A DNA stretch of 64,000 nt from Nitrosarchaeum sp. (GCA_965223865.1 OZ245020.1:832001-896000), one strand, 5' to 3'; numbered from the stretch's first letter, positions 11,277 through 34,704 are shown. The notes: generated from the sequence alone by a model not told the origin. Translations and numbers: made by a program.

Positions 11277-11339
11277 AACTTTTATGATTTACAAAACCAT
11301 ATATCTTTTTGAGTTAGCTATTATCTTAACTGAAGAAGC

Positions 11340-11522
11340 ATGACAAAAATTTTAGAAGTAATAGGACTGGTTTTAGTAGGGATTATGTTCTTAGCATTTG
11401 TTGGAGTAATTCCCCAGGTTGAATCAGGATTATCTCCAGTATTTTGGGGATGTGCTGGTTGTGCATTAATGATAATCTTCTATAGAAAGATGAAAAGAAA
11501 ACAACAAGAAGAAAAAAATTGA
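11340..11522 (+). CDS. Small two-TM membrane protein
   Basis: Two hydrophobic helices and a basic tail. Confidence 0.65.
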   Translation: MTKILEVIGLVLVGIMFLAFVGVIPQVESGLSPVFWGCAGCALMIIFYRKMKRKQQEEKN

Positions 11523-11611
11523 TTTAATTCAAGACAATGCTAAGAACTGATCAAGTATTGATCAACCGACAGATCTATAAAGGAGAATTAAAGTAAAAGT
11601 TTGGGAGGAGC

Positions 11612-11698
11612 ATGAAAGAAGAAACTAAGCAATGGTGGGAAGGTTTAGGAAAGGAGTTAGAAGTTGACATTGAAGCCTTCGACGAATCAAGCTCTTAA
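11612..11698 (+). CDS. WWEG micropeptide 1 (28 aa)
   Basis: MKEETKQWWEGLGKELEVDIEAFDESSS; GGAGG upstream; AGATCTATAAA promoter. Confidence 0.6.
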   Translation: MKEETKQWWEGLGKELEVDIEAFDESSS

Positions 11699-11740
11699 AA
11701 ATTTCATATTAAAAAATAAAATAATTTTAAAGCCTCGAAC

Positions 11741-11768
11741 GGGATCTGAATGCAACCGTTCAGAGCCC
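11741..11768. repeat. GCAACC-loop hairpin, copy 1
   Basis: GGGA-TCTGAAT-GCAACC-GTTCAGA-GCCC; related copies at 21268 and 12052. Confidence 0.55.
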
Positions 11769-11932
11769 TAACAAATTAAGAGATTATTTCATTGAATTAT
11801 AAAATAAAAAATGAAAATTATTGCTCTATTTGATCACAGAAAAACAGGATTGAGTATGTTATATGAGGAGCAATTTGATTTTGAATTAATTTTATAGCAA
11901 GATCTATAAACAATGATCCTTCCCATGTTGTA

Positions 11933-12010
11933 ATGTCTGATTCTGTTATTCCTAAATGGTGGGAAGGAATGAAAGGGTTAGAGACAGATATTGAATGTGA
12001 GATGTCTTAA
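11933..12010 (+). CDS. WWEG micropeptide 2 (25 aa)
   Basis: MSDSVIPKWWEGMKGLETDIECEMS; AAGATCTATAAA promoter about 25-30 nt upstream. Confidence 0.65.
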   Translation: MSDSVIPKWWEGMKGLETDIECEMS

Positions 12011-12334
12011 TTTAGCATATATTCCTAAAGGGCCTTAAGCTAAATCTTGAAGGCCCTCGAGGGGTGTTGCAATATTAGTTCAGGGCCCCTGTAATGTTAG
12101 AGTCAAAATTTGAGTTATTTTCTAGGTTCAACAAAGTTTGACGTTGAGAGAAGGCTACAATGACAAATCTCCCTGACTCTCTTCTGGTTTTGGGTCTTAT
12201 TTTAGTCCCAAGAAAGCATATGGACCCACAGCTACTTTCAACAAATCACTAGATTGAAACTAGTGAAAAAACTCATCCATATAATCACAGTACTAAAGAG
12301 AAGATTTAACTCATCTAGTATTAAGTACAAAATT

Positions 12335-13063
12335 ATGAAACTGAAGTTTTCAGCTTTGATATTATCATTTGTTTTGCTTGCAGGTTCTATTCCCTTTTCT
12401 ATTGCCCAACAAGAATCTACACTGATTCCAGAATGGATAAAACAAACTGCAAAATGGTATTCTGAAGGAACCGTGTCTGAACGAGAATTTCTGGATGCAA
12501 TAAGATTTCTTGTTCAAAACAAGATAATCATCATAACTGAGGAAGAATTCACAGAAGATCCAACATTACAAACTGATCAAATCACCGTCACAAAGCCAAG
12601 GATCAAACAATGTGAGGTTTTGTTCCAATCCTACAAAAATATTGGTGAACATAGATTCAAAAGCAAATACTCTCATGTTGCCTACTTGAAAGATTGCATA
12701 TCTCTTTACAAAGATCCTGTGTGGAAATACCAGGGAGAAGATCGTCACGATAAATTGTATCAAAGGCTAATAGACATCCAACAAACAAAACCAGAACAAA
12801 AAAAACTGTCTTTTCAACCTGAAGTAAATATTCTATCAAAAATTAACATTGGAAAAGAAAAGTATGATGTAAAGTTCAATGTATGTGCAGGAGACAAGAA
12901 AATTGACAAGGCAAAAGTATTGATCAAATCTCAGATTGAAAGTATTGAGTATGGCACCAACAAGGACATTGCCGAAAATACTTGTAGAACTTATGTTTAT
13001 CAAATAAACGCCAAAAATCCCGATAATATTTTCATTACAATTCTAGAACAAGTACTGGAATAA
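12335..13063 (+). CDS. Secreted protein with thaumarchaeal IPxWIK..A.W domain
   Basis: Signal peptide from ATG 12335; IPEWIKQTAKWYSEG.VSE.EFL.AI.FL motif. Confidence 0.8.
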   Translation: MKLKFSALILSFVLLAGSIPFSIAQQESTLIPEWIKQTAKWYSEGTVSEREFLDAIRFLVQNKIIIITEEEFTEDPTLQTDQITVTKPRIKQCEVLFQSYKNIGEHRFKSKYSHVAYLKDCISLYKDPVWKYQGEDRHDKLYQRLIDIQQTKPEQKKLSFQPEVNILSKINIGKEKYDVKFNVCAGDKKIDKAKVLIKSQIESIEYGTNKDIAENTCRTYVYQINAKNPDNIFITILEQVLE

Positions 13064-13136
13064 TTTAACAATCTCTGTAAATAACAAAATTTGGACCTAA
13101 CTTACAGTTGACGTGTTATATTTTGTCTCCTAATCC

Positions 13137-13742
13137 TTATCTAATGGGGGTCGCCGCATTTAGAACACCAATGAATCTGCCATGACTGTCTTTGATTTTT
13201 AGAACAATATCAGCTGATAATATTTTTGCACTCTCATCCCACAATACTTCCCTTACATGAACATCTTGTTTTAATGCCCTGAGCCATCATCCCTCATCTC
13301 CTTGATTGTAGTCATCAGTTCTGCCAGTTATTGCCACATTTGCCCCAAACTCATTGGTTATTATGATTTCAGGAAATATTACATCGCCAAATTCCTCAGT
13401 TGAAATTGTTTGTTTTTGCTTAAGGATTTTTGAGATGTTATTTTCAATCAAGGATCCCATAAAAGGAGATGGCTTGTCTTTTGGAGTGCTCTTCCATTCT
13501 TTGTCTCTATCTACAATGTATGTTTCAGGGTCTTGCATTGCTTCCTGCATGAACTGCCTGTTTTGTCCCATATTCTCTCTCATCTGCTACCTGAATTCTG
13601 GATCTGACATCAATTCTGGCATCTGTTGCGGGGACATGGCCATAGGACCAGGAGAAGAGTTCTGCATAGCTGCAAATCCTATTCCAATTCCTGCAACAAA
13701 AACGCCAACTGTAATGCCTATCCAAACATATTGGCTAACCAT
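13137..13742 (-). pseudogene. Chimeric pseudogene: Met/Gln-rich membrane-anchored protein N-terminus fused to a Cache/PDC-like sensor fragment
   Basis: One frame MVSQYVWIGITVGVF...EFR*QMRENM...EIIITNEFGANVAITGRTDDYNQGDEG*W...GRFIGVLNA, with in-frame TAG (13587-13589) and TGA (13287-13289). Confidence 0.7.
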
Positions 13743-13886
13743 AACTTGATGACGCTTTTTGATTCTTATGTTTATGTCCAGTTTTCAATGAATGTTATCA
13801 TGTATTGTTGTTTAATTATGGAATCAAGATATAGAACAACTACATCATCTTGATATTGTGTTTTATCTAATAATTATTCAATCACG

Positions 13887-15584
13887 ATGACAACTGTTCA
13901 ATCTATCTCTAAATTATGCCAGGATAAACTATGGAAATTAAGAATTCTCACATTTACTGCCGGTGCAGTGGTCATGGGCTTGGAGATTGTAACAAGCAGG
14001 ATACTGACGCCTGTTTTTGGAAGTACAATATACACGTGGGGAAGCCTGATTGGAGTAATTCTGAGCGGTTTAAGCCTAGGTTACTATTTGGGTGGAAAAG
14101 TTGCTGATGACCATCCAAAATTTGAAAAGATTTGTGGGATTGTTTTTTCAGTTGGATTGTTTATTGTAGCAATTCCATTTTTTGCCTCTTCAGTAGTTGA
14201 TTTTACTATTGCAGTATTGCCTGGCACCCAGTTCACTTCCTTGGTTGCAACGTTTTTGTTATTGATGCTTCCTTCTGTTTTGCTTGGCTTTGTATCACCA
14301 TATGTGATCAAGCTTGGAACAAGCACATTGCAAAGAGTTGGAAACATTTCTGGAAACCTTTATTCAATTGCCACAATTGGCAGCATCTTTGGCACATTTG
14401 TAACGGTCTTTGTCTTGATTCCAAATGTTGCAGTAAACCAGATAATTTTTGGACTCGGAATTGCATTGATTGCAAGTTCCTTGATTGGTCTCAAAGCATC
14501 TCCTAAAATCATTGCAGTTGCGATTGTAGTAATTCTGATAGTTCCTTGGTCTTCATTGTCGGTAAATACAATATCACATAATGGAAAGCTAATCTATGAA
14601 AAAGAGACTCTTTTCAGTCATTTGGACATTGTAGAGTATGGAAGTAACATAAGCATGTATCTTGATGGTATGAGACACAGCTCAATGAATGTCAATGATC
14701 CTCTAGATTTGGTAATAGATTATACTGAATACTTTCACTTAGGTATGCTGTTTAATCCCACAGCCAATGATGTTTTATTTGTTGGTGGTGGAGGGTTTAC
14801 CGGTCCAAAAAACTTTCTTGCATTATATCCTGATACAAAGATAGATGTAATTGAGATTGATTCAGATGTGATTGATGCGGCAAAGACATACTTTAGTTTG
14901 GAGGATAACAATCCAAGGCTTCAGATATTCAATGATGATGCAAGAAAACACCTATCTACATTTGAGAAAAAATACGACGTGATAGTTTTAGATGCATATG
15001 CAGCAAACTATGTGCCCTATCATTTAATGACACAAGAATTCTTTCAAATTATTGAGAAAAGACTAGAACCAGATGGTGTTGTGGTATCTAATTTCATAGG
15101 CTCCATTGAAGGAAAAGATTCTCAGCTAGTTAAGGCTGCATACAAGACAATGAAACAGACATTTCCAGTAGCATATATTTTTCCTACAGAAGATAAACCA
15201 ACAAATGTACAAAATATCATGATAGTCTCATCAAACCAGCCTTACGAATTTGATAGATTGTTACTACTAGAGATGGCAAAAAACAGTCCTGCAGACTATC
15301 TAGTGGATGAACTAAGCAAACCTGAGCACTTTTACCAAGAAATAGTTGATACTTCGGAGGCTCCATTTCTTACTGACCAACACAATCCATCTGAAGTTCT
15401 GATCAACCCCCTTACTAGCAAGCCCTATGTTCAGGAATTTCAAGATGAGCAAATAGAAAAGAGAGAACATCGAGACGATCTGATAAATGTGGGATTGGGC
15501 ATAGGATTATCTGTGATTGCAGCAATATGGTTTCTCTATTTTAAAAAGAAGGTTTGGAATCCAGAATTAACTTTACCATCTTAG
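13887..15584 (+). CDS. Fused membrane domain/spermidine synthase-like protein
   Basis: N-terminal TMs (MGLEIVTSRILTPVFGS); VLFVGGGG, EID, DDAR and DVIVLDAY motifs. Confidence 0.88.
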   Translation: MTTVQSISKLCQDKLWKLRILTFTAGAVVMGLEIVTSRILTPVFGSTIYTWGSLIGVILSGLSLGYYLGGKVADDHPKFEKICGIVFSVGLFIVAIPFFASSVVDFTIAVLPGTQFTSLVATFLLLMLPSVLLGFVSPYVIKLGTSTLQRVGNISGNLYSIATIGSIFGTFVTVFVLIPNVAVNQIIFGLGIALIASSLIGLKASPKIIAVAIVVILIVPWSSLSVNTISHNGKLIYEKETLFSHLDIVEYGSNISMYLDGMRHSSMNVNDPLDLVIDYTEYFHLGMLFNPTANDVLFVGGGGFTGPKNFLALYPDTKIDVIEIDSDVIDAAKTYFSLEDNNPRLQIFNDDARKHLSTFEKKYDVIVLDAYAANYVPYHLMTQEFFQIIEKRLEPDGVVVSNFIGSIEGKDSQLVKAAYKTMKQTFPVAYIFPTEDKPTNVQNIMIVSSNQPYEFDRLLLLEMAKNSPADYLVDELSKPEHFYQEIVDTSEAPFLTDQHNPSEVLINPLTSKPYVQEFQDEQIEKREHRDDLINVGLGIGLSVIAAIWFLYFKKKVWNPELTLPS

Positions 15585-15591
15585 CAGAGAA

Positions 15592-16788
15592 CTAACAAGA
15601 TTTTGCATTTGCTAGTTTCTGTCTAGAAATAACAAACAACATAACAATTGCAGCGCCACACATCACCATACTGTATCCATAAGCCTGTTGTGTGCCAAAA
15701 TTCTCTAGCAATACCCCAAAGACCGTATTTGCAATCAAAAATGACACGCCAATAAACAGATAATATATTCCAAATGCAGTACCTCGGAGCTTCTCAGATG
15801 CTAATTTTGAGACTATCGTTTTCTGGCTGGTAATGGACATTCCCAGGTATATCCCAAATATTGAGGCCATTGCAATTGTTACATGCCATGTATCTGCATT
15901 AGAAAATCCTAAGAGAGCAACTGCAAAGAACAAACCGAATCCAATGAGCAGAATTTTTTGAGGACCAATTCTGTCAGACAAGATTCCTGCAGGATATCCG
16001 GAAATGGCATGTGCGATGTTTATCACCACATAGACAATTGGGATCAGAGCGGCTGTCAGCCCTGCATCCATTCCCTCTAAAAGTATGAAGGAGAAATTGA
16101 ACGCGCCAAGAGAAAATACCGTAAAGACTATCATGAATAACAAAAATCGACCACGCAGCACTTCCCTAAAGTTTGAAAGTATGGTTGCATCCCTTGGTAT
16201 GATTCTTTTTTCTTTGACAAAGAACAGAATTATCACCAGTGCAGCAGCTGCAGGTATCAATGAGATCCAAAATATCTCTCTAATGCCTAAAAGAGGAATC
16301 AGCAAAAATGCAATTAACGGACCAACTACTGCTCCAACAGAATCCAGACTTCGATGCAGACCAAAGGCACGTCCCACTTGAGTTATGCTGACAGAGTCAC
16401 TAAGCAGGGCATCACGTGGTGAGTTTCTTATCCCCTTTCCCAACCTGTCTGAGACTCTTATTGCCAAGACATGCTGCCAAGCTGTAGATATTGCAAACAG
16501 TGGTTTTGCTACAGTAGACAGAAAATATCCCAAAAACACCAACGGCTTTCTTCTTCCTAGCTTGTCAGATAGTGCACCAGAAAATGTTCTGGAACCATAT
16601 CCTACTGATTCTCCAAGACCCTCAATGAATCCAAAGATTCCTTTTCCTAACCCAAGCTCATCGATCATGAATACCGGCAATATGCCAAAGATCATCTCTG
16701 AGGAAATGTCAGTAAACATGCTGACAAACCCCAGATTCTTTACGTTGCTTTCATAATTGGTCTTCTTTTTGGCCAAACAGTAAACCAA
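15592..16788 (-). CDS. MFS transporter
   Basis: G.LSDKLGRRK motif A, DRLGKGIR..PRDALL; about 12 TMs. Confidence 0.9.
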   Translation of the reverse strand: MVYCLAKKKTNYESNVKNLGFVSMFTDISSEMIFGILPVFMIDELGLGKGIFGFIEGLGESVGYGSRTFSGALSDKLGRRKPLVFLGYFLSTVAKPLFAISTAWQHVLAIRVSDRLGKGIRNSPRDALLSDSVSITQVGRAFGLHRSLDSVGAVVGPLIAFLLIPLLGIREIFWISLIPAAAALVIILFFVKEKRIIPRDATILSNFREVLRGRFLLFMIVFTVFSLGAFNFSFILLEGMDAGLTAALIPIVYVVINIAHAISGYPAGILSDRIGPQKILLIGFGLFFAVALLGFSNADTWHVTIAMASIFGIYLGMSITSQKTIVSKLASEKLRGTAFGIYYLFIGVSFLIANTVFGVLLENFGTQQAYGYSMVMCGAAIVMLFVISRQKLANAKSC

Positions 16789-16938
16789 GTCAATTATGAT
16801 TTTTTAATGTCATTAAACTGAGATTATATTTTGTAATTTTGTAATAAAATTGTGGAATAACTCATAGTACAATACAATTCTCAAATTAGAAAATCAGATA
16901 TTCCAATTAAGTATTTGAAAATTCTTTTTTTTTTGTTT

Positions 16939-17416
16939 ATGGCAACAAAAAAACCAGTAAAAGAGAATCAGGACTAGCTCCATTTTGGACATCAAGTTGG
17001 ACAGACATTGACAAGTCTATTGAAAATCTGAGAAAAGACATGGAAAAGGCATTCTCATCATTTCCTTCAATATCGATGCCAAAAATGCCGGAGACCTCTT
17101 GTGATGTTATAGATGAAGGTAACCAATTTCGTGTAAAGATGGACGTTCCTGGAGTAAAGAAAAATGAGATTAGTCTTAATGTGACTGATAATTCATTGGA
17201 AGTGTCAGCAGAACACAAGGAAGAATCTGAGGAAAAGAAGAAAAACTATCTCAGAAAGGAACGAAGCCATGTGTCATATTATAGAACACTGCCAAGTCTG
17301 AAGACGTGGTTTCAGGTAAAGTAAAGGCAAAACTCACCGATGGAGTGCTAGACATCACACTGCCAAAGGCAAAACCAACTAAAACACAAAAGAAAAAGTC
17401 AATATCAGTACAATAA
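16939..17416 (+). pseudogene. Hsp20/alpha-crystallin small heat-shock protein with two frameshifts
   Basis: DVPGVKK, YLRKER and AKLTDGVLDITLPK motifs split over frames; A7 instead of A8 near 16950 and a second shift near 17295. Confidence 0.8.
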
Positions 17417-17511
17417 TTCTTTTTTATTTTTTTATTTCAAAAATGAGCATTGATTTCTAATCTTGATTTTATGTTACAACATTAAAAAATTACAAATTCA
17501 ATATCAATAAC

Positions 17512-18738
17512 GTGGTAACTGAATTTGATGTAGTTCCTACCATTATTGGAATTTTGGTCATTGTTATTCCTTCCATGTTGCTCGGAAGACTCTGTGCCCG
17601 ATTTAAAATATCTGAAATATTTGGATTTATTTTGGGCGGGGTTATTTTTGGCCATTTTGCAATTGGTGGATTGATTCCATTTCATGATGAACCAATAGTT
17701 GTAATGGATGATCTAATGTTGTCAATTTGGCAAGTTTCAGGAATAATCATTCTGTTTTCTGCAGGACTGCACTTTACCTTTCATGATCTGCGCCGAGCCG
17801 GAATGAAGGCAGCTTCTGTAGGAATTGGTGGCGTGATAGTGCCGCTGATTCTGGGATATCTTGTGACGAGTATCTTCGGATACGAGTGGCAAGCTGCAAT
17901 TGTAATAGGAGCCACTCTAAGTGCCACCAGTATTGCAATTTCTGTCACAGCATTAGAAGAGCTCAGAAAAGAAAAGACCACTGAAGGAAACGTACTTGTC
18001 AATGCAGCAGTGTTAGATGATGTTTTGGGAATTGCAATCTTGTCTGCAATTCTCTCAATTATAGTGACAAACTCTATTCCTACAATCGAGACAATTACAC
18101 TGCAGACAGTAGAATCCATCGGATTCTGGTTTGTGTTATTGTTAGGAGCAGTATTTTTGCTGCCCCGAATAGTCCACATGACGACAATTGCTCATCCAAC
18201 TTCACTTGAATCACGCGGAATAAATCAAGCCGTGGCTTTAGGTTCTGCCTTTGGATTGGCTGCAATTGCTGGAGGCCTTGGCCTGAATCCGATAATTGGA
18301 GCATTTGCAGCAGGCATGGGGTTAGCTGATTCCAAGCTAGCAATGCAAGCACGTGAATTTGCTGGAAGACTCAAGGTGATTTTCACTCCTCTGTTTTTTG
18401 CAGTAATTGGTGCACATGTAAATCTGGGGGCTATTTTTGATATCAATATTGTTGTGTTTCTTGGTATTTTGGGAGTTGCCATATTTAGCAAAATTCTAGG
18501 ATGTGGTATTCCTGCGTCATTTTTGCTAAAAAATCGTAAAAAAGGATTGCGAGTAGGATATGGGATGATTGCAAGGGGCGAGATAGCATTTGTTACGATT
18601 GGATTGGGTTTATCATATGCTGTTATAGATCAAACAATGTATTCTACGATTATTTTTGTTATCTTGGCAACAATTTTCATTGCACCAGAACTTTTGAGAT
18701 TATCATATAGAAATGAAAATTCAAAAAAATCAGCCTAG
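17512..18738 (+). CDS. Cation:proton antiporter (CPA2/Kef type)
   Basis: LSATSIAIS, AAVLDD and GMIARGE motifs. Confidence 0.9.
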   Translation: MVTEFDVVPTIIGILVIVIPSMLLGRLCARFKISEIFGFILGGVIFGHFAIGGLIPFHDEPIVVMDDLMLSIWQVSGIIILFSAGLHFTFHDLRRAGMKAASVGIGGVIVPLILGYLVTSIFGYEWQAAIVIGATLSATSIAISVTALEELRKEKTTEGNVLVNAAVLDDVLGIAILSAILSIIVTNSIPTIETITLQTVESIGFWFVLLLGAVFLLPRIVHMTTIAHPTSLESRGINQAVALGSAFGLAAIAGGLGLNPIIGAFAAGMGLADSKLAMQAREFAGRLKVIFTPLFFAVIGAHVNLGAIFDINIVVFLGILGVAIFSKILGCGIPASFLLKNRKKGLRVGYGMIARGEIAFVTIGLGLSYAVIDQTMYSTIIFVILATIFIAPELLRLSYRNENSKKSA

Positions 18739-18976
18739 GACCAAAAAATAATTCTTCTTTATTCTTAATCGTTCAAAATAGAAGTATTTAGGAAATTCTG
18801 GTTTTGAATCATTTTCTGAAATTTTTATTATAGTTTTCATTATGCCGAAAATTATGGTTACACGAAGCCGGCCCTATCTATACCCCAGCACAACTTGTAT
18901 GTGATAATAGGAGTAAGCCTTTTTTCTTCACAAACGTTACAGTTTGAATGTATTGAATTTTGATAATGGATTTCTA

Positions 18977-19954
18977 TTAATTCAGATTGTCCTCAAAAAA
19001 TTTCAATGTCTTTTGCCATGCATCCTTTGATTCTTCCGGTGCATATCTATCACCGGATGGATTTGCAAATGCATGGTTTACTCCGGGATATATGGTGATG
19101 TCATTGTCAATTCCAACTGTATCCAGAGAAGTCTCAAACTCGTTTACAGTCTCTGGGGGAATTCCGTTGTCGAGCTCAGCAAATATTCCCAATACTGGCC
19201 AGTTGATCTTAGATAATTCTTCAGTGTCTGTTACAAGCTGACCGTAATAGATTACTGTAGCATCCATGTCTTCATTGTTTAATGCCAGGTTCAGTGATTG
19301 TCCACCTCCAAAACACCACCCAATTGAACCCAAGCTAGATGAAGAATAATTTTCTTGTAGGTAAGATACTGCAGTATTCATGTTTTCTGTCCAATAGGAT
19401 TGCTCAAAGGAGGTACGTAGCTGTCTTGCCTCATCAGCAGTTGTGCCAACCTGTCCATCATACAAATCAACTGCAAACACGACATATCCATGTGATGCAA
19501 GCTTTTCTGCCATCTGCTTTATGTTGTCATTTAGTCCCCACCACTCATGAATCATTATCACTCCAGGATAACTTCCATCTGTTTGTGGTTTTGCCAAGTA
19601 TCCGTTAGAATTTCCAAAGTATGAAACATTTGTTGTCTCTACCTCCAAGTCTCCTGTTTCAAATATTACAGAATTGTTATTGTCATTTTTTTCATAATCT
19701 GGTAAAACATGTATTGCCCATTCTCTTTCGATCAGTTTTTCAACTGATGATGGTTTGACACATGCAGGTTGTCCGTTTGAGACTTTCATTATTAACTCAA
19801 GGCCTTCAGTACATGTCACGTTAGAAGGATCCGTACCATCCTGAATCTGCTTTAATGGTGGAGGAAAATACGCTATACCATATACATCATCGTAAACTTG
19901 AACGGTCAAAATTAAAGATGAAAATATTGCCATGATGAAAAATGAATTCTTCAC
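18977..19954 (-). CDS. Secreted dienelactone hydrolase family protein
   Basis: HEWWGLN, GWCFGG and HAFANPSG motifs; N-terminal PPLKQ...C.EGL...P.CVK domain. Confidence 0.92.
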   Translation of the reverse strand: MKNSFFIMAIFSSLILTVQVYDDVYGIAYFPPPLKQIQDGTDPSNVTCTEGLELIMKVSNGQPACVKPSSVEKLIEREWAIHVLPDYEKNDNNNSVIFETGDLEVETTNVSYFGNSNGYLAKPQTDGSYPGVIMIHEWWGLNDNIKQMAEKLASHGYVVFAVDLYDGQVGTTADEARQLRTSFEQSYWTENMNTAVSYLQENYSSSSLGSIGWCFGGGQSLNLALNNEDMDATVIYYGQLVTDTEELSKINWPVLGIFAELDNGIPPETVNEFETSLDTVGIDNDITIYPGVNHAFANPSGDRYAPEESKDAWQKTLKFFEDNLN

Positions 19955-20306
19955 AACAGTGATTATAATTTGTAATATTTTACTTTTGAGTAGAAAAATA
20001 ATCTGAGATTTTTTATTTGTTAATTAAACAAAAGATTACATTTGTGATAAAAACAGGTCAATGAAATTTCAGTTTTGCAGTTATCTAGATTTTGTACAAG
20101 TAAAAATAATGATTAGAGAGTTTTTCGGATTCATTTGGGATTTGATTTCTGGAAATTAGCTTCGTATTCATAATTTTGAACCAACATTTGAATTTTCATT
20201 TCCAGATTACAAATAAGACATTTTTGTATCAGAAATTTCGTAAATCTATGTTACAACCATAGAGAACACTCAGCAACCTTAAATCTTGGGTTGACCATAT
20301 TTTCCT

Positions 20307-20735
20307 ATGACCAAAGTGTTAGTCCCTACACTGTTGCTTTCTTTTCTGGCAGTGGTGATGGTGTTTGGTTCTGTCGCTCCTGCAATGGCTGATTCAGAAG
20401 GAGACAAATCCTACAAAAGAAATTGGGTTGTGCCAATTGGTGAAGCAGTTGGAACAATAGAGATTTCTGAAGATACTAACATTGATGATGTAAGAGATCT
20501 TGCAATTTCTGAAGAGCAAGCAAGACAAGGATACGATGGTATTGACAAGGCCAAACTCAAAAAAGCCGTAAATGACGCTGGTCAGTATTTTCTGGTATGG
20601 AAACTAATTGACTATACAGAATCTGATACAAAGATAAAGTATATCCTTGATGCAGGAACCGGAGAACAACTAACTGAACCAATTGTCAAAGAAAAGGGTT
20701 CATGCGGTAAACACAAAACTGGTGAGAACGCATAA
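20307..20735 (+). CDS. Secreted hypothetical protein (PepSY-like C-terminus)
   Basis: Signal peptide; ILDAGTGE motif. Confidence 0.7.
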   Translation: MTKVLVPTLLLSFLAVVMVFGSVAPAMADSEGDKSYKRNWVVPIGEAVGTIEISEDTNIDDVRDLAISEEQARQGYDGIDKAKLKKAVNDAGQYFLVWKLIDYTESDTKIKYILDAGTGEQLTEPIVKEKGSCGKHKTGENA

Positions 20736-20756
20736 CCAACTTTTTTCTGATTTAAG

Positions 20757-21126
20757 ATGAATAAAATAGATATTTTGTTTTATGCTGCTGCAACTACTGT
20801 AATTGCAGGAATCATCCATGTAGTTTTAGGATATGATTCAGGCAGGATAAACACAGATCCTATTTCTTGTTGGAGGGGTCGCACAGATATTTTGGGCAAT
20901 TCCGATGGCAAGAAAATGGGGACCCGTATGGTATTCGGTAGGATTAGGAGGAACAATTATCTTTATTCTAATTTGGGTAATTACTAGAATTCCTGATAAC
21001 TTCATTACCGGCAGAGGAGGAAGAATAAGTGATAATGGCATACTGACAGAAGTATTTCAGATAGCATTTGTTGGTATTGTTATTGCAATTTTAGTTCTAG
21101 AGAAGAAAAGATTATCTCAAAATTAA
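20757..21126 (+). pseudogene. Frameshifted four-TM membrane protein
   Basis: MNKIDILFYAAATTVIAGIIH continues as QILFLVGGVAQIFWAIPMARKWG in another frame (shift near 20850). Confidence 0.7.
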
Positions 21127-29770: not shown

Positions 29771-29902
29771 TTAGATGAGAATGATTTTTCTTCTTTGAGT
29801 GTCAATTGTATACAGACACTCCGAACAAACCTGTAATGAATCATCATACTCTGAGACATGTCTCTTGTTAAGACAAATGTCACAAAAGATATCTCCTGTC
29901 AC
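29771..29902 (-). CDS. 43-aa CxxC...CxxC microprotein
   Basis: MTGDIFCDICLNKRHVSEYDDSLQVCSECLYTIDTQRRKIILI (GTG start). Confidence 0.5.
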   Translation of the reverse strand: MTGDIFCDICLNKRHVSEYDDSLQVCSECLYTIDTQRRKIILI

Positions 29903-29997
29903 TGGTACCTATCAGAAGTTTTAGTATATTTGAAATTCTATGTTTCTATTTTTCACATAACATGTGGTATTAATACACAAAATGACATCTAGATACC

Positions 29998-30153
29998 ATG
30001 TCACAACGAATTACAATAATGTTAAGTTCAGAGATTTCATCTAAGCTACGCAACATACAGTCAAGGATGATAAAACCCTCTGACAAGTCGATTAGTTTCT
30101 CCAAAGTGATTAATGATGTTCTAGAAGAAGGACTAAAACACTACAAGCTATGA
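29998..30153 (+). CDS. Ribbon-helix-helix-like small regulator
   Basis: MSQRITIMLSSEISSKLRNIQSRMIKPSDKSISFSKVINDVLEEGLKHYKL. Confidence 0.75.
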   Translation: MSQRITIMLSSEISSKLRNIQSRMIKPSDKSISFSKVINDVLEEGLKHYKL

Positions 30154-30243
30154 TATCTCCAGTGAACATTCATCAGAACATATTCTTCTGTTAAACACAT
30201 CCTCATACTCTCGATTACAATGTACACATCTTCTAAAGCTCAT
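30148..30243 (-). CDS. 31-aa zinc-finger microprotein
   Basis: MSFRRCVHCNREYEDVFNRRICSDECSLEIS (CxxC...CSxxC). Confidence 0.5.
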   Translation of the reverse strand: MSFRRCVHCNREYEDVFNRRICSDECSLEIS

Positions 30244-30276
30244 AATACTATTACACAGTTCAAGAATATAATCTAG

Positions 30277-30483
30277 TCAGATTCTGATCTTTGTCTTTTT
30301 CTTTCTGTACTGGTTGCCCTTGGGTTTACTTCTTAGCATGTATCCGCAACACGGACACCACAGTCCTTCCCACTTTATGTAAATTGAACACGTGGTACAT
30401 CTCTTGGCACCCCTTGTATACCATGACTCATACCTTTTTCCTTTAGTCATTTTGTACCTGTGGCATATTTCCTGGCATACCAT
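30277..30483 (-). CDS. Cys-rich zinc-finger protein, family A copy 2
   Basis: CQEICHRYK...GAKRCTTC...WEGLWCPCCG.MLRSKP. Confidence 0.8.
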   Translation of the reverse strand: MVCQEICHRYKMTKGKRYESWYTRGAKRCTTCSIYIKWEGLWCPCCGYMLRSKPKGNQYRKKKTKIRI

Positions 30484-30598
30484 AATAACCTCATACCAAA
30501 ATTATCCTAATTATTTCTGTTTTCACTATACATTTGTGGGCATGATTTTTCAAATTAAGCTAAGTGATCTTTAAAGATCATAAAAACCTGAAGCAATC

Positions 30599-30826
30599 AT
30601 GGCCGAATATGTCCAGTCATGGAGAAAGAGACTGAGACTCAAGCATCTTGTAGATCTTGCACAAAAAGAACTGGGAGAAGAATATGACTATAAGGACATT
30701 GAAAAAATCCAAGAAAAACTAGATTCTGAGATGAAGAAAAAGTGGAAGCTGATAAAAAGTACCAGAAAAGAGTATCTTGAGATTGTACAAAAAATTCTGA
30801 GAAAAGAGTATGTGCTTCAAGTCTAA
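30599..30826 (+). CDS. Small basic helical hypothetical protein
   Basis: 75-aa ORF with TTTAAA box upstream. Confidence 0.65.
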   Translation: MAEYVQSWRKRLRLKHLVDLAQKELGEEYDYKDIEKIQEKLDSEMKKKWKLIKSTRKEYLEIVQKILRKEYVLQV

Positions 30827-31000
30827 AATTATTAATAATTGTCATTTCATGATTGGGATATTTTTTTTGAATCAATGGTATCTCAGGTAAGATAATCAAG
30901 TAAAGCTAAATCAAAAACTAATGACATTAGACAACAACAATTAACTTGCAGTAAGATGTTGTATCTTTATTCGTTATTACAATAATGAATAAAATCAATT

Positions 31001-31106
31001 GGAAGCTGACTATCGGTCGTGCACACCCTTTACGTAGCGTCACTGTATGCTTCGCCAGCAAACCGATGTAAAGTATGAGACTGTCGGGAAAACAGTGTCA
31101 GCTTCC
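31001..31106 (-). ncRNA. Candidate structured ncRNA with probable pseudoknot
   Basis: 10-bp terminal stem GGAAGCTGAC/GTCAGCTTCC enclosing four more helices; TTTTTAT box about 27 nt upstream on the minus strand. Confidence 0.7.
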
Positions 31107-31263
31107 TTATATTATATAACTGAATTTGAGATAAAAAAGATCCGATCATCGTTATTTTATTTAAAAAATATACAAAAAACAAATTTTATTCTGATTTGTT
31201 GCCAAATCAATCAGTTTGCATCTGTAAATTCTGCAAGTCGCCAACCATCCAACCAAAATTTAA

Positions 31264-31530
31264 TTGTCTCAAAAAACGTCTTATCGTGTGGGCAAAGGCA
31301 TCATCATAGGAATTATCATTGCCATTGTTGCAGTTGGCTTTATTCTGACATATACTAACACTGCTGATGTGCTAAAGCCTGAGATCGAATCATCAGTGGA
31401 TACTGCAAAAGATGCAATATCCCAAGTGGATAAAGATGAGGTGGTAGAAAAAGCCGAGCAAGTAACAGAGAAGATCAAAGACGTGACTGGCAAGATCAAA
31501 GTGACAAATCCTCTAGAATCTGAAAAATAA
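31264..31530 (+). CDS. Small membrane-anchored protein
   Basis: One N-terminal TM followed by an amphipathic helical tail. Confidence 0.7.
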   Translation: MSQKTSYRVGKGIIIGIIIAIVAVGFILTYTNTADVLKPEIESSVDTAKDAISQVDKDEVVEKAEQVTEKIKDVTGKIKVTNPLESEK

Positions 31531-31557
31531 CTAGCTAACTCTAAAACTGGCTTTATT

Positions 31558-31758
31558 CTATATTCTGTTGATTTTAGCCTCGTTTCTGTACTTGATTGAC
31601 TTGGTTTTGAGCTGATATTTGCAGCATGGACATCTATTCTCATCAATCTTCATAAACACTGCGCAATGCGAACAGTATTTCTGTCCTGATTCATATCTTG
31701 AGATGCCAGTATCGGGTTTTTTGACTCTATACTGATGGCAGATGTTGGTGCAGGACAA
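31558..31758 (-). CDS. Cys-rich zinc-finger protein, family A copy 3
   Basis: CTNICHQY...RYESGQKYCSHC...CPCC.YQL.TK. Confidence 0.8.
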   Translation of the reverse strand: MSCTNICHQYRVKKPDTGISRYESGQKYCSHCAVFMKIDENRCPCCKYQLKTKSIKYRNEAKINRI

Positions 31759-31873
31759 GTGTAAAGATGATTGAAATGCTTGATAATTAATTTCAATGAT
31801 GTAAATTCTGTTGACCTGGATCGAGGCAAAATTAAATTTTATAATTCAAATTATATCCTGACAGGTTTTTCTC

Positions 31874-31978
31874 ATGATAGGGTTGTGCTGCAAATGTTAT
31901 TCTTCAGGAGTATCTCTTGTGTTAGATGTAGATGTCATTGAGGCAGTTTGCAATAAGTGCAGAGAAAAGAAGAGTTAA
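31874..31978 (+). CDS. 34-aa zinc-finger microprotein, family B copy 2
   Basis: MIGLCCKCYSSGVSLVLDVDVIEAVCNKCREKKS. Confidence 0.7.
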   Translation: MIGLCCKCYSSGVSLVLDVDVIEAVCNKCREKKS

Positions 31979-32052
31979 AACTTGACAATCCTTGGATGCG
32001 AAGTTTAATTTCTGATTGATTTGATCATAATTTACGGTATGATGTATTGTAG

Positions 32053-32346
32053 TTATTGTGATGGCACATCATAAACAAACAATGTGAGTGCAGAACGTAC
32101 TCCATTTGTGTATCTTATCTTGGTTCTTACCGTTTCTTTTATTATTTCATTTGGAGCCCTTATCTGTACCAAGATGTCATAGATTCCCTGGATACGATTA
32201 ACATCAGTTACGCCAGGGATTGTTCTTATCTTTTCTATGGTAGAATCCATCTGTTTCTCATCACAAGTAAGCAGCACAAAAGAATGTTCAACATTCTCAG
32301 ACAATGTATGTATATGGATTTTAAAATAATTAAGAATTACAGACAC
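32053..32346 (-). CDS. Stand-alone Lrp/AsnC ligand-binding domain protein
   Basis: IPGV..V....G.YDILV...KIR...GVRS.LTL; true start probably downstream of 32346. Confidence 0.82.
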   Translation of the reverse strand: MSVILNYFKIHIHTLSENVEHSFVLLTCDEKQMDSTIEKIRTIPGVTDVNRIQGIYDILVQIRAPNEIIKETVRTKIRYTNGVRSALTLFVYDVPSQ

Positions 32347-32364
32347 TCTTGTACTACTCTAAGG

Positions 32365-32619
32365 TTATCCTCCTTTGCTTAGTTCTGATTCTCTTATCAT
32401 CTCGTCTTGTTCTTGCAGTGCCCTTGTGAGGTCCTTTCTTTCTTGCTTTGTTCCAGTACATGCGAACTTTCCTTGGTTGTATGAATAGTGAGCAGAACCA
32501 TCAGAATTTTGCCACTGCAGTTTGTTGGTGTATGGGTGCTTGTAGTTTGACATTCTGCAAGTCAGAGTAGCACCACATGCAGAACAGACCATTGTCGCGC
32601 CTTCCTTCTTTTCAACCAT
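32365..32619 (-). CDS. Small Cys/His-containing hypothetical protein
   Basis: CSACG...KLQWQNSDGSAHY...FAC; likely start at ATG 32619. Confidence 0.65.
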   Translation of the reverse strand: MVEKKEGATMVCSACGATLTCRMSNYKHPYTNKLQWQNSDGSAHYSYNQGKFACTGTKQERKDLTRALQEQDEMIRESELSKGG

Positions 32620-32654
32620 CTTCTTTGTTTCCTGGAGATGATGCAGATAACATT

Positions 32655-32852
32655 TCACGAAGTTTCTTTTTGAATTTGGCACTTCGTGGTTTGAGTTCTG
32701 AGCTTGAATCCGCAGCATGGGCAATACAGGCCTTCCCAATCAAGAAATATCTCGCACATCTGGCATCTTTTTTGGCCTATAGAGTATCTGAGAGGGCCCA
32801 TGCCTCTTGGCGTAGCCTTGTACTTGTAGCATATAGCCTTGCATCCAACCAT
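32655..32852 (-). CDS. Cys-rich zinc-finger protein, family A copy 4
   Basis: CKAIC.KYKA...RY..GQKRCQMC...WEGLYCPCCG.KLRT. Confidence 0.8.
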   Translation of the reverse strand: MVGCKAICYKYKATPRGMGPLRYSIGQKRCQMCEIFLDWEGLYCPCCGFKLRTQTTKCQIQKETS

Positions 32853-33124
32853 GATGACTCATTACATCTCTTTTGTTTTTATTACTTCTTTTAGCCTTGA
32901 AATTTCATATTCCCAAAGTATCTTTGAGGTATGCAAGAAGACTGAGCAGTGCGGCAAATTAGACTATCCCAAAACCTATTGGACTAAGCAATGCGTCTTT
33001 TTTGGTAATCATGACTTAACTGTAATTTTGCAATGTAGTTGACTTTTCAGATCAAAAATTTTTCATACCATAGTATGATTCATGCACAAGATCTATAAAC
33101 CATAACTTTTGAAAAAACCACAAA

Positions 33125-33214
33125 TTGAATGAATCATCTGCATCATGCCCTAGCTGTATGATTGAGCATGCATCAGGAGTTGGATGTTCTTGTGACTGTC
33201 ATAAAGATAGATGA
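33125..33214 (+). CDS. 29-aa Cys/His-rich micropeptide
   Basis: MNESSASCPSCMIEHASGVGCSCDCHKDR (TTG start); AAGATCTATAAA promoter as in the WWEG genes. Confidence 0.5.
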   Translation: MNESSASCPSCMIEHASGVGCSCDCHKDR

Positions 33215-33283
33215 TAATATCCTTTGCGAATAATTTCTCAACACCGGTTTTAATGTAGAATCCTAAAGCATCTCTGTTAAACA

Positions 33284-33508
33284 ATGCAAATGGCACATAT
33301 ACTAGTAAAATGTGATGATGGAAAAGAAGAGGTACTTGATGATATCAGATCAATTAATGAAGTCAGTGAAATGGAAAAGACATTTGGGGCATACAATGCA
33401 GTAATAAAGATAGAAGCAGAGTCAATTCAAAAAATCAAAAACATAATGGCAAACAAGATACGAAACAGACCTGGAATCCTAAGTACTCTAACTTTGGTTA
33501 CGTCATAA
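33284..33508 (+). CDS. Stand-alone Lrp/AsnC ligand-binding domain protein
   Basis: TFGAYNAVIKIEA...KIR...GILSTLTL. Confidence 0.82.
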   Translation: MQMAHILVKCDDGKEEVLDDIRSINEVSEMEKTFGAYNAVIKIEAESIQKIKNIMANKIRNRPGILSTLTLVTS

Positions 33509-33572
33509 TTGATTGAAATAAAATAATTCTGATTTCTCAGTAAGAGCTATAAGCAAAGATCCTCGCTACCTT

Positions 33573-33656
33573 ATGATGGCATCTGAATCTATTCCCATGT
33601 GGTGGGAAGGACTGGAGAAATTAGAGTCTGACATTGAATGTGAAGCAGACCGTTGA
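33573..33656 (+). CDS. WWEG micropeptide 3 (27 aa)
   Basis: MMASESIPMWWEGLEKLESDIECEADR; upstream region closely matches that of copy 2. Confidence 0.65.
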   Translation: MMASESIPMWWEGLEKLESDIECEADR

Positions 33657-33668
33657 ATACTGGTTAAA

Positions 33669-34704
33669 TTATTTTGGATAGTATAACTTTGTGAAGATAA
33701 AGTGCCCAAGCTCCAGTATCGCATCTTCTGCATCCTTGCCTGAAAGATGCACATATTTTTTTACCATGTCCGAACCAGGACTCCAGTTTCCATAGACGCG
33801 AAGTGTCTGGTCTGAGAGTTTCTTTGATAGTATGGTAAGCTGCGAGTGTCTGAACAAATAGTTCCAGACGCGTCTCTTAATTTCAGCTTTTGCAGTGCAG
33901 CGCTTGAGCTGCTCTCTTAGATATCCATATGAGACCTGTCTAGTTTTTGATTTGGGGGAGTATGAATACCACAAGGGTGCATGCGGATCATCTCGCAGCG
34001 GATGGTCATGCATCCATTCAAGCAACGGCTTGAAGGATACCACCAGCAACACGCTTGTTTCCTGTCTTTCCATGGGTGCTTAGCAGAACATAGTTTTCCT
34101 TAAACTCCACTCCTCCCACTTTCAGGTTTAGCAGCTCACCTGGTCTGAATGCACCTTCAAACATTGACCAAAACATTGCACGGTCACGTCTGTTTGTTGT
34201 TTTGCTGATAATCTGCTGTATCTCCTGTATGTCTAACAGATCCTCTGATCTGATCTTTTCTTCCTTGCTGTTGTACTTGCTTGGCTTTATCCAGGAAACT
34301 TCTTTGCAGTATCCGTCATCTCTGTTTCCTATCTCGTCTTTTTTTGCATAGTGCACCAGTCTTAGCAGAGTCAGTGCAAAGGCCTGTCTGCTTTCACCAC
34401 CATAGTCTCTTGAGAGGATATCTGACAGTACTGTCTCACAGTCTTTTTTTGTCGCATCTGCAAGTCTGACATTTATCTTCTCAAATGCCTCAAGCAACGG
34501 CCTTATTCTGTCGCCATACACCGATATCCTGCCGTCTGACAATCCAAACAACTTTAGCTTTTCTAGGAACTGAATTCCAATGTCACCATCCTTGCATTGC
34601 AGCAAACGATTCTTGGCATATTGGATTCTACGCCAATACCTGTGAATATCAATTGGTCCAGTGTTGTATGGCTTTTCCTGTGTTTGGTTTTTCTGATTGC
34701 TCAT
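33669..34704 (-). pseudogene. Tyrosine integrase with one frameshift
   Basis: RDRAM...EGAFRPGELLNL and HGKTG in one frame; YLFRHS, GNWSPGS and KKYVH in another; shift near 34047. Confidence 0.88.

Follow-up and report, generated by a model that had tools for sequence, protein, structure and literature searches.

Genes and features of the locus

The window, a stretch of 64,000 nucleotides from a Nitrosarchaeum genome, contains three small open reading frames (sORFs) that share a WWEG motif. All three, here called copies 1 to 3, are present at the coordinates given by a sequence-only reading of the same DNA. Copy 1 belongs to type I and copies 2 and 3 to the 'DIEC' type. The features around them are listed by window position and strand.

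10773-11522 (no strand assigned): conserved neighbours of copy 1, namely a wHTH gene (HTH_45; 10773-11054, + strand) and two homologous small membrane proteins
11058-11276 (-) and 11340-11522 (+): these small membrane proteins, with basic tails
11564-11584 (+): predicted promoter of copy 1, conserved block AACCGACAGATCTATAAAGGA, BRE/TATA-like, with an AGATCT palindrome at 11571-11576
11612-11698 (+): copy 1 sORF, type I, 28 aa, judged a core chromosomal gene; GGAGG-like sequence 5 nt upstream of the ATG
11731-11750 (-): att remnant, identical to the final 20 nt of tRNA-Thr(CGT) (tRNA positions 55-74)
11900-11920 (+): predicted promoter of copy 2, AGATCTATAAACAATGATCCT, a TATA box between GATC half-sites, kept at the orthologous element end in genome G401
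11933-12010 (+): copy 2 sORF, DIEC type, 25 aa, first gene of the inserted element
12015-12069 (+): GC-rich hairpin that follows copy 2, a probable terminator conserved in part in G401
32684-33707 (no strand assigned): 1,024-bp repeat whose inverted counterpart, 109 kb away (contig C1:755801-756824), is 99.9% identical; within it lie the Cys-rich sORF, RAM gene and copy 3, and it is the likely inversion substrate
33089-33214 (+): AAGATCTATAAAC predicted promoter and Cys-rich 29-aa sORF (33125-33214, TTG start)
33284-33508 (+): gene for a stand-alone Lrp/AsnC ligand-binding (RAM) domain, 74 aa (PF01037, E 2.6e-11)
33543-33563 (+): predicted promoter of copy 3, AGAGCTATAAGCAAAGATCCT, an AGATCT variant with one change
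33573-33656 (+): copy 3 sORF, DIEC type, 27 aa, or 26 aa if the start is the second ATG at 33576
33669-34881 (-): tyrosine-recombinase gene broken into overlapping ORFs at 33669-34073 and 34018-34881; it is convergent to copy 3
34791-34907 (-): tRNA-Met(CAT) with an intron, adjoining the integrase

Each micropeptide gene stands alone in about 150 bp: a predicted promoter of its own, close to the BRE/TATA consensus and with a nearly invariant AGATCT, precedes the sORF, and a structured or T-rich end follows it. The predicted fold of 12008-12100, after copy 2, reaches -33.3 kcal/mol (z -3.43), and 0 of 200 shuffled sequences folded as well.

The WW micropeptide family and its probable promoter

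Six-frame translation of the 2.01-Mb genome gave six WWEG occurrences, compared to 0.89 expected, and all six fall within the micropeptide motif of what we call the WW family. According to our HMM, the genome has eight family members; the five outside the window were not part of the sequence-only reading. The family core is WW-x-G-x3-4-[LF]-[EQ]-x-D-I-E, in peptides mostly of 21-37 aa with a pI of about 4.1 (4.05-4.10 and net charge -4.5 to -6.5 where calculated). The WW pair does not vary in the 25 aligned members. Cysteine is absent from type I peptides, which also lack histidine, and occurs once in the DIEC type. For four peptides, neither Pfam-A nor NCBIfam returned any family at E<=10, HTH families of Pfam-A included; Rfam gave no match for the loci, and a PDB search found no relative. 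By exact look-up, one of six sequences was present in a collection of 15 billion proteins. AlphaFold gave a weak model (pLDDT 68.8) with two short helices and not one, and the helical hydrophobic moment of the core is modest, at 0.36-0.45, where shuffled sequences average 0.23 and have their 95th percentile at 0.43.

We then analyzed variation among 21 type I-like orthologues. The pN/pS ratio is 0.21 in frame compared to 0.64 and 1.94 in the other two frames, in a set chosen with a protein HMM, a choice that favours the reading frame. Entropy at codon positions 1, 2 and 3 is 0.48, 0.27 and 1.02. Leucine codons swap among TTA, TTG, CTT, CTA and CTC, and some of these switches need two bases. 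Start and stop codons are conserved at nearly all family loci, and the amino-acid motif is retained between paralogues whose DNA identity is 72% or less. The in-frame-only purifying signal and the synonymous leucine switches uphold the earlier claim of protein-level selection. On this signal, we regard the micropeptides as protein-coding genes under purifying selection.

Among 24 other genomes of the archaeal family, 17 have HMM matches at E<=1e-3 and 20 at E<=1. Representative clusters number 161 at E<=1e-3, and the 150 listed span 23-108 aa; the longer sequences among 24 fetched are gene calls that reach upstream through the promoter or carry unrelated C-terminal run-ons. A coding pattern matched at least 117 stretches in 596 Gb, and among the matches listed, 80 of 80 are labelled as Nitrosopumilus-group (AOA-group) archaea or bins so named. 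Two coding patterns gave no match in viral contigs of IMG/VR, a search by exact degenerate patterns that divergent viral copies could escape. As far as sampled, the family is thus wide yet taxon-restricted, its hosts being Nitrosopumilus-group ammonia oxidisers from sea and soil. It comprises several old chromosomal paralogue lines, which differ in gene context and share no conserved operon partner; most members are chromosomal and distant from any integrase.

The WW module also forms the N-terminal 17 residues of a conserved protein of about 57 aa with a CPxC...CxxH metal-binding-like domain. This long form is represented by 58 clusters of 54-88 aa, which cover 84-100% of the query, and W5, W6, L12, D15, I16 and E17 are invariant in 16 aligned sequences. 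Its profile matches in Pfam and NCBIfam are at chance level (E 0.03-0.11), its AlphaFold model is weak (pLDDT 60.5), and it is absent from the syntenic site of the Nitrosarchaeum genome. This domain fusion is a lead toward partner interaction and not proof of it. Passages on archaeal u-proteins describe stand-alone genes of fewer than 70 codons, often unannotated and often multi-copy, such as the one-domain zinc-finger type of Haloferax volcanii (PMC6562870, PMC10716476). As far as those passages go, the WW family is similar in being stand-alone archaeal small genes, and the CPxC...CxxH of the long form recalls C(P)XCG zinc knuckles. The micropeptides differ from u-proteins in that they have no metal ligands, lack the two Cys pairs of the zinc-finger type, belong to another phylum and are defined by the WW-G-L-E-DIE core with a common promoter.

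Upstream of the sORFs, AGATCTATAA is found at 11571-11580 and 11900-11909 and AGAGCTATAA at 33543-33552, and the leader sequences previously quoted for copies 2 and 3 are correct. In 77 loci chosen by coding pattern only, AGATCTAT lies upstream of the sORF in 76, in agreement with the shared promoter proposed before. From the start of AGATCTAT to the ATG there are 20-42 nt in most loci; a single locus has 54 nt, and the distance is greater where translation does not start at an ATG. An information profile shows conservation between -7 and +13 relative to the anchor, a block that corresponds to AACCGACAGATCTATAAAGGA. By itself, AGATCTATAA is not enriched (14 seen vs 16 expected), and among 32 AGATCTAT[AT]A sites on contig C1, six precede a family sORF and three a Cys-rich sORF, at 33-41 nt. 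An archaeal core promoter consists of an A-rich BRE and a TATA-like box some 25-30 nt ahead of the transcription start; the motif resembles aAGrATTATAA boxes upstream of tRNAs in the same genome. The AGATCTAT block could simply be a strong core promoter and not an operator. A dedicated common promoter or regulation for the family is probable.

Core and mobile copies at the tRNA-Thr site

In relatives, the type I sORF lies head-to-tail against tRNA-Thr(CGT), which starts 30-60 nt past the sORF stop; a tRNA directly follows it in all nine loci among those listed. The wHTH gene, the two small membrane proteins and a PGM/PMM-like gene surround copy 1 in 15 of the 27 relatives' loci, across genera. 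In the closest relative, G004 (93-94% identity), sORF, tRNA-Thr and PGM gene are colinear and represent the empty site, where two alignments overlap by 25 nt at the tRNA end. Copy 1, which had been taken for an island gene, is by its synteny and its presence in this uninterrupted site an ordinary core chromosomal gene beside the integration-target tRNA.

The intact tRNA-Thr(CGT) gene now lies at C1:727069-727142, and only its 20-nt 3' end persists beside copy 1. A direct 3'-end repeat at the far junction and an empty site in a close relative, as expected of an integrative element, are both found at this tRNA. The att repeat is inverted relative to the tRNA because of an inversion; the flanks lie on opposite strands in G005 and G004 and on the same strand in the Nitrosarchaeum genome. 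Inside the element, there is a weak integrase-like ORF at 28749-29510 and, in its other half, a TraG/VirD4-like gene; Pfam matches none of the first ORFs next to tRNA-Thr. We conclude that tRNA-Thr(CGT) serves as an integration site and that a plasmid- or ICE-like element of about 50 kb entered it. Later recombination between the two inverted 1,024-bp repeats probably flipped about 108 kb and brought half the element next to an unrelated, decayed tRNA-Met integrase. Two copies of a 1-kb mobile module are thus the probable agents of the inversion. The region from 11.7 to 33.7 kb, previously seen as a single island, is instead an inversion product that holds half of the element. That copy 3 sits inside the 1,024-bp repeat had not been noticed before.

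Integrated elements of Thaumarchaeota, as presented in a passage of Krupovic et al. (2019, PMC6563490), target tRNA 3' ends and have a short att duplication, a tyrosine recombinase and small hypothetical cargo. That passage names neither these micropeptides nor tRNA-Thr or RAM genes, and the main text has no match for 'Lrp', 'tRNA-Thr', 'inversion' or 'small protein'. The tRNA-Thr element resembles those described there in its tRNA 3'-end integration, short att duplication and small hypothetical genes, and may share a tyrosine recombinase with them.

The DIEC subtype is rare (4 of 401 genomes) and always found in accessory DNA. The start of copy 2 lies 183 nt inward of the att junction, and an orthologue of this copy is found at the same junction in another genus (G401). 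Copy 3 ends 12 nt from the stop of the frameshifted integrase, whose paralogue at C1:1627421-1628527 aligns contiguously to both ORFs of the split gene; the genome yielded no further fragment of tRNA-Met. In G004, a DIEC-type copy (L027) adjoins tRNA-Ser and an integrase homologue, and the module of Cys-rich sORF, RAM gene and WW sORF also occurs. The Cys-rich sORF also occurs at copy B and, with 72% identity, in G004. Four of the nine DIEC-type copies have an intact RAM gene upstream; this gene is decayed beside the intact copies B and F and is therefore not an obligate partner. A DIEC gene is placed either first inside the att junction of an element or last in the small module. In all, four of nine DIEC-type loci adjoin att, tRNA or integrase within a few hundred nt. 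The suggestion that the peptides are carried at element ends applies to these loci, copies 2 and 3 among them, but not to copy 1 or to most family members, which are chromosomal. A simple imprecise-excision origin of the element's copy fits poorly, as it predicts the captured gene at the other element end and not beside the host copy.

Candidate functions and alternative explanations

We are highly confident of a genuine coding family with a core/mobile split. The overall explanation, which joins this well-supported anatomy to an inferred mechanism, is one towards which we lean. Methanosarcina mazei sP26 binds glutamine synthetase, and bacterial small-protein modulators form a similar class. 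By analogy, the WW peptides may resemble such partner-binding proteins in their size class, lack of enzymatic potential and likely docking; they differ in having no conserved operon partner and a context that varies between paralogue lines. The peptide would dock its W-W/L/I face onto a partner protein, and the mobile copies would be variants co-opted to supplement or disturb the function of the host peptide. We put forward the partner-binding modulator as the leading but tentative candidate, and find it rather doubtful that the mobile copies act as mimics.

Could the DIEC-type copies assist site-specific recombination, as modulators of directionality or excision or as integrase regulators, and be placed near att and int because they act there? 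The four of nine loci so placed would fit, as would the distances of copy 2 (with its G401 counterpart) and copy 3, the position of L027, the small number of integrase-like loci in the whole 2-Mb genome and the core paralogue, which adjoins the attB tRNA in all relatives examined. Excisionases and RDFs are basic DNA-binding winged-helix proteins of roughly 50-100 aa. WW peptides share with them small genes beside att or int on integrative elements, but are acidic, about 25 aa long, without a DNA-binding fold and mostly chromosomal, and one of the eight copies in the genome adjoins int. Moreover, neither integrase nor tRNA nor att lies near the other five DIEC loci, other family lines are conserved across genera and unrelated to integrases, and copy 3 is intact beside a frameshifted integrase. 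We therefore think such a role improbable for the DIEC type. The general integrase or excision modulator suggested by the sequence-only reading is unlikely, because most members are chromosomal and far from integrases; its DNA-mimic and antitoxin ideas find no support in peptides of only 25 aa without a toxin partner.

Three further explanations concern the nature of the unit itself. A conserved non-coding RNA or DNA regulatory element with an incidental frame would account for a promoter block more conserved than the peptide ends and for the structured sequence after copies 1 and 2, and protein expression is a prediction. Variation that piles up at third codon positions, the low pN/pS in one frame only, the kept starts and stops, the survival of the motif among diverged paralogues and the lack of an Rfam match make it very hard to sustain. 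The constant WW pair, the hairpin after copies 1 and 2 and amino-acid-binding RAM genes beside some copies would suit a tryptophan-sensing leader peptide, in which ribosomes stalled at the tandem Trp codons would control a gene further downstream. However, residues past WW are also conserved at the protein level and no trp genes lie nearby. A convergent tRNA follows type I and a convergent integrase follows copy 3, so an attenuation leader would have no co-directional gene to control, and we see almost no chance for it. Finally, the micropeptides might be decayed N-terminal stubs of the zinc-knuckle long form, whose first 17 residues equal the WW core; copies B and F do adjoin decayed RAM genes. 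But short forms are intact with their own stop across many genera (the 161 clusters and at least 117 stretches), under purifying selection, and the type I tRNA begins too soon after the stop to leave space for a lost domain, so that this origin is scarcely credible.

Beyond the partner-binding modulator, remodelled copies at element ends in two genera hint at a host-element interplay through the micropeptide. In its boldest form, the WW micropeptides would be a regulon on one dedicated promoter/operator, possibly read by a special TFB or wHTH factor. Elements targeting the core-copy tRNA would have captured the peptide and remodelled it as the DIEC type at att or integrase, to mimic or antagonise the host peptide. 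We give this little credence; if true, control over the integration, excision or takeover of elements would be tied to a signalling peptide of the host.

Nitrosopumilus-group archaea rank with the most abundant microbes of the ocean and many soils, yet their small proteome is essentially unannotated, the WW family included. With up to eight copies per genome, conservation across genera and a near-invariant promoter, it is a ready target for peptidomics and for promoter and partner screens. To our knowledge, these archaea have no genetic tools, and the family promoter offers them a natural one that is strong or regulated. Because it flags the tRNA-Thr(CGT) integration hot spot, the core copy is a handy landmark for integrated elements.

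Coding evidence and spread of the family

The sequence-only reading had placed three short open reading frames (sORFs) for 'WWEG' peptides in the window, each preceded by AGA(T/G)CTATAA. Their coordinates proved exact, and the upstream element is present at 11571, 11900 and 33543. In a six-frame scan of the whole source genome (Nitrosarchaeum sp., 2.01 Mb, 4 contigs), WWEG was seen 6 times against 0.89 expected from amino-acid frequencies, and all 6 occurrences fall within the family peptide motif. An HMM built from relatives' peptides found 8 family members in this genome.

Family members in the source genome
Window 11612-11698: copy 1, 28 aa
Window 11933-12010: copy 2, 25 aa
Window 33573-33656: copy 3, 27 aa, with a second ATG at 33576
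OZ245020.1, 755855-755932, minus strand: copy A, peptide identical to that of copy 3
OZ245020.1, 767139: copy B, HMM match
OZ245020.1, 1542149: copy F, HMM match
About 1209790, minus strand: divergent member with WWIG, HMM match
197886: divergent member with WWKG, HMM match

Selection at the protein level had also been claimed, and a dN/dS-type check bears this out. For 21 type I-like orthologues from other genomes (type I being the core chromosomal line of copy 1), pooled pN/pS was 0.21 in the sORF frame versus 0.64 and 1.94 in the shifted frames, with the caveat that this set was picked by a protein HMM. In the same set, entropy at codon positions 1, 2 and 3 was 0.48, 0.27 and 1.02, so that the third position is the most variable, and the Leu codons TTA, TTG, CTT, CTA and CTC interchange. 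As read from the alignment, the type I sORFs of the source genome and its closest relative, G004, differ by 2 non-synonymous and 4 synonymous changes. Judged by these sequence patterns, the family sORFs are protein-coding.

Across the taxonomic family, 24 further genomes were searched with a 5-sequence profile: 20 gave a match at E<=1 and 17 at E<=1e-3, the relatives compared not being independent samples. With 16 other families of the order represented by one genome each, this profile found nothing in 14 of the 16; the two matches outside the family, at E 0.47 and 0.72, span no more than 7-8 residues, one falls within a frame of 1,439 residues, and both are regarded as noise. Searching 1.84 billion representative proteins with a 25-member profile returned 161 clusters at E<=1e-3, with lengths of 23-108 aa among the 150 matches listed. 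In the 24 cluster sequences fetched, longer members are gene calls extended upstream in frame or carrying unrelated C-terminal run-ons; the upstream extensions run through the promoter, translated as '...RQIYKG...', and no known fused domain was found. A degenerate core coding pattern matched at least 117 stretches in a 596-Gb collection of species-representative genomes. Among the 80 matches listed, labels at genus rank were Nitrosopumilus, Nitrosarchaeum, Nitrosotenuis, Nitrosopelagicus and Nitrosotalea, and others read Nitrosopumilaceae/-ales or Thaumarchaeota/Nitrososphaerota; the odd labels came from single bins, namely Nitrososphaeraceae (2 contigs of one bin), 'Crenarchaeota' and 'Nitromaritima'.

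Several other identities for these sORFs were weighed. A stub of a decayed larger gene was rejected on the frame signal in pN/pS, the convergent tRNA after the sORF and the 161 clusters. An RNA family was likewise discarded, as Rfam matches at gathering score were tRNAs only and those around copies 1 and 2 were at chance level. Convergent downstream genes spoke against a leader peptide with a regulated downstream gene. A viral gene is so far rejected, both coding patterns having 0 matches in IMG/VR viral contigs.

The family is essentially unannotated, since Pfam, NCBIfam and the PDB hold no relative of the peptides and an exact look-up in a 15-billion-protein collection returned only 1 of 6 sequences, copy F. 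A 2025 survey of marine small proteins describes many Thaumarchaeota small-protein clusters from seawater (PMC12856327). We found no paper on the peptides or their promoter in ammonia-oxidising archaea, and the supplementary tables of that survey may list the family as an unnamed cluster. We rate the family as new and uncharacterised, belonging to the archaeal very small proteins, a known class; what goes beyond that class is a hyper-conserved private promoter and variants borne on mobile elements.

The predicted shared promoter

Promoter conservation was assessed on the 80 listed coding-pattern matches, which had been chosen without promoter information. The octamer AGATCTAT stands upstream in 76 of the 77 loci having at least 70 nt of upstream sequence, 49-64 nt from the tandem Trp (WW) codons. 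The conserved block is AACCGACAGATCTATAAAGGA, and the spacer 3' of it is variable. Because the block resembles the 'aAGrATTATAA' boxes found about 30 nt upstream of tRNA genes in the source genome, we read it as a predicted near-consensus BRE/TATA core promoter in which the AGATCT palindrome is additionally constrained. The DIEC type, the accessory subtype of copies 2 and 3, and some other lines have another GATC about 8-10 nt past the TATA (AAGATC-TATAAGCAAA-GATCTT), and the resulting palindromic frame round the TATA box could be an operator. Type I sORFs have a GGAGG/GGGGA-like sequence directly before the ATG; to judge from their upstream sequences, the other lines are probably leaderless or nearly so.

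A genome-wide regulon defined by AGATCTATAA was rejected, with 14 sites versus 16 expected and no comparable ORF at the remaining sites. Of 32 AGATCTAT[AT]A sites on the contig, 6 precede WW sORFs, 3 precede a Cys-rich sORF and the others precede nothing comparable. A TFB (TFIIB) paralogue lies at L001:17573-18472 (OZ245020.1, 767573-768472), convergent with the DIEC-type copy B and 0.4 kb from it. The unusual, predicted BRE could be read by a dedicated TFB.

Core copy, inserted DNA and the DIEC subtype

Copy 1 had been taken for a gene of an 11.7-33.7-kb island, and our comparison makes it a core gene instead. Gene order around the type I sORF is shared by 15 of the 27 loci compared in relatives. 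It comprises an approximately 194-aa gene, an HTH_45 winged-helix gene, two small membrane proteins (homologous to each other, with basic tails), then the sORF itself and a gene of 432 aa from the PGM/PMM family, and a convergent tRNA separates the sORF from the PGM gene in 9 of 9 loci printed.

Features of the tRNA-Thr site in the source genome
OZ245020.1, 727069-727142: intact tRNA-Thr(CGT), 116 kb from copy 1, inverted
OZ245020.1, 725719-727014: PGM gene, 116 kb from copy 1, inverted
Window 11731-11750: tRNA remnant after copy 1, exact match to the last 20 nt of tRNA-Thr

In G004, which is 93-94% identical in this region, the sORF-tRNA-PGM arrangement is uninterrupted: its sequence corresponds to positions 841526-843750 of the contig and then to 727147 down to 715356, with a 25-nt overlap at the tRNA end. 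All DNA to the right of 11750, copy 2 included, is therefore inserted.

The supposed island itself is not one unit but the product of an inversion. The 1,024-bp segment carrying copy 3 (window 32684-33707) has a 99.9% identical inverted copy at OZ245020.1, 755801-756824, and recombination between these inverted repeats best explains a chromosomal inversion of about 108 kb relative to G004 and G005. When the inversion is undone, OZ245020.1 727143-755800, one repeat and window 32683 to 11751 fall between tRNA-Thr and the att remnant, and arithmetic on the repeat and att coordinates gives an element of about 50.6 kb. The flanks support this independently: the sequences to the left of copy 1 and to the right of tRNA-Met share a strand in the source genome, with 23 kb between them, but have opposite orientations in the complete genomes of G005 and G004, at distances of about 50 kb and 172 kb.

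The integrase adjoining copy 3 is broken into a pair of overlapping ORFs (287 and 134 aa), to both of which a paralogue (OZ245020.1, 1627421-1628527) aligns contiguously. The repeat boundary lies 39 nt inside the 3' end of the integrase ORF, and no second tRNA-Met fragment was found in the genome. The tRNA-Thr-side half of the element contains a TraG/VirD4-like coupling-protein homologue of 1,054 aa (L150:9299-12460; OZ245020.1, 734299-737460), which suggests that this ammonia-oxidising archaeon harbours an integrated element resembling a conjugative plasmid. Integrated elements may be listed in the supplements of PMC6563490. Close to copy A are a Fic-domain gene and a fragment of a multicopper oxidase. 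Among other features of the window, the inserted DNA bears extra tRNA genes (tRNA-Phe, 21363-21449; tRNA-Ile, 23314-23406), the genome having 3 tRNA-Phe and 2 tRNA-Ile calls. About 60 nt upstream of this tRNA-Phe, a 33-nt stretch (21268-21300) is 76% identical to the att-junction sequence and hints at a possible second junction or tandem elements. At 24296-24393, a 49-nt unit is exactly duplicated in tandem and overlaps the start of the ORF 24381-25253.

The core of copies 2, 3, A, B and F reads WWEG-x3-L-[EK]-x-D-I-E-C and has one residue fewer than that of type I. This DIEC pattern occurs in 4 of 401 genomes of the family: the source genome (five copies), G004, G006 and G401; the HMM found an additional G004 copy, a DVEC variant. 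The nine DIEC loci all lie, as far as could be judged, in DNA that has no same-place counterpart in relatives. They recur in two settings, of which the first is the end of the element. In G401, from a different genus, the DIEC sORF follows the type I sORF by about 250 nt, and window 11700-12070 aligns there over the att junction (...GAA|TGCAACCGTTCAGAGCCC...), the promoter and the sORF, and over part of the hairpin that comes next. Simple imprecise-excision capture of the host gene was rejected as the source of copy 2 by inference from geometry: capture from the side of the sORF would leave the gene at the tRNA-proximal end and not at the remnant end.

The proposed link of the peptides to element ends and integrases holds in part. 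Four of nine DIEC loci have an att junction, a tRNA or an integrase no more than a few hundred nt away, but the family in general is not integrase-linked. The second recurring setting is a module that runs promoter, Cys-rich 29-30-aa sORF, 74-78-aa gene for a stand-alone RAM (the Lrp/AsnC ligand-binding domain), promoter, DIEC sORF. Copy 3/A and L027 of G004 have this module intact, and the G004 module adjoins tRNA-Ser(GCT) and an integrase homologue (35% identity). At L004 of G004 the RAM gene is intact and the Cys-sORF match partial (E 0.001); copy B keeps the Cys-rich sORF next to a decayed RAM gene, and the RAM gene of copy F is decayed as well. An intact RAM gene precedes 4 of 9 DIEC loci. 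Since the RAM gene has decayed at B and F, and copy 2 and G401 have none, the RAM protein is unlikely to be an obligate partner.

The Cys-rich sORF (window 33089-33214; OZ245020.1, 766668-766790; G004 L027:1073-1159) has the same promoter, AAGATCTATAAAC, and always lies directly upstream of a stand-alone RAM gene. It has six Cys, one or two His and a CPSC motif and may represent another micropeptide family that possibly binds metal. On the minus strand at window 32053-32346 there is a further stand-alone RAM/ACT-like gene (97 aa), 1 kb from the first.

Long form and proposed mode of action

The family peptides are strongly acidic (pI 4.05-4.10, net charge -4.5 to -6.5), and the residues W, W, G, L/F, D, I and E are invariant in this background. 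AlphaFold2 gave weak models, with pLDDT of 68.8 for the micropeptide alignment and 60.5 for the long form, an approximately 57-aa protein described below; in the former, short helices flank WW-x-G and the core reaches 71-77. A PDB sequence search returned chance-level matches only. Invariant residues, acidity and the weak model would fit a short docking peptide and not an enzyme, a membrane peptide or a DNA binder. We propose that the chromosomal copies, driven by the common, tightly conserved promoter, may encode small modulators of at least one host protein, and that integrative elements would carry remodelled copies adding to or competing with the chromosomal ones.

In G020 (L031), the WW core forms the N-terminus of a 57-aa protein behind a promoter of the same kind (M-x2-K-WW-x-G-x3-L-E-F-DIE-S-I-DYRKYL-x-CPxC-x4-LYC-x-EHR-x-EVE). 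This long form comprises 58 clusters of 54-88 aa at 84-100% query coverage, and W5, W6, L12, D15, I16, E17 and the Cys/His positions are invariant in 16 aligned sequences. In a protein atlas, its neighbours at 0.89-0.90 were small and zinc-ribbon-like, with low shared-feature counts, so that they serve as leads only; a 35-aa copy had no neighbours. Since the WW core occurs both alone and attached to a small metal-binding-like domain, the WW module is a portable unit. The fusion may thus give a Rosetta-stone hint as to where a partner could be sought. Adjacency or a single domain fusion is the basis for the candidate pairs, which are the peptide with the RAM protein and the peptide with a 73-aa Cys/His protein.

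The long form is absent from the syntenic site of the source genome. A 73-aa protein encoded outside the window (OZ245020.1, 1207889-1208107), 1.7 kb from a type III copy, has the Cys/His domain of the long form without the WW module (48% identity over 42 aa, E 3e-13). Its family comprises 11 clusters, and because relatives' gene calls read in frame through a promoter-like AAGTCTATAAC upstream, the true start is probably the internal MDYSKYL. The domain of this family reads DYSKYL-C-x2-C...LYC-x2-H.
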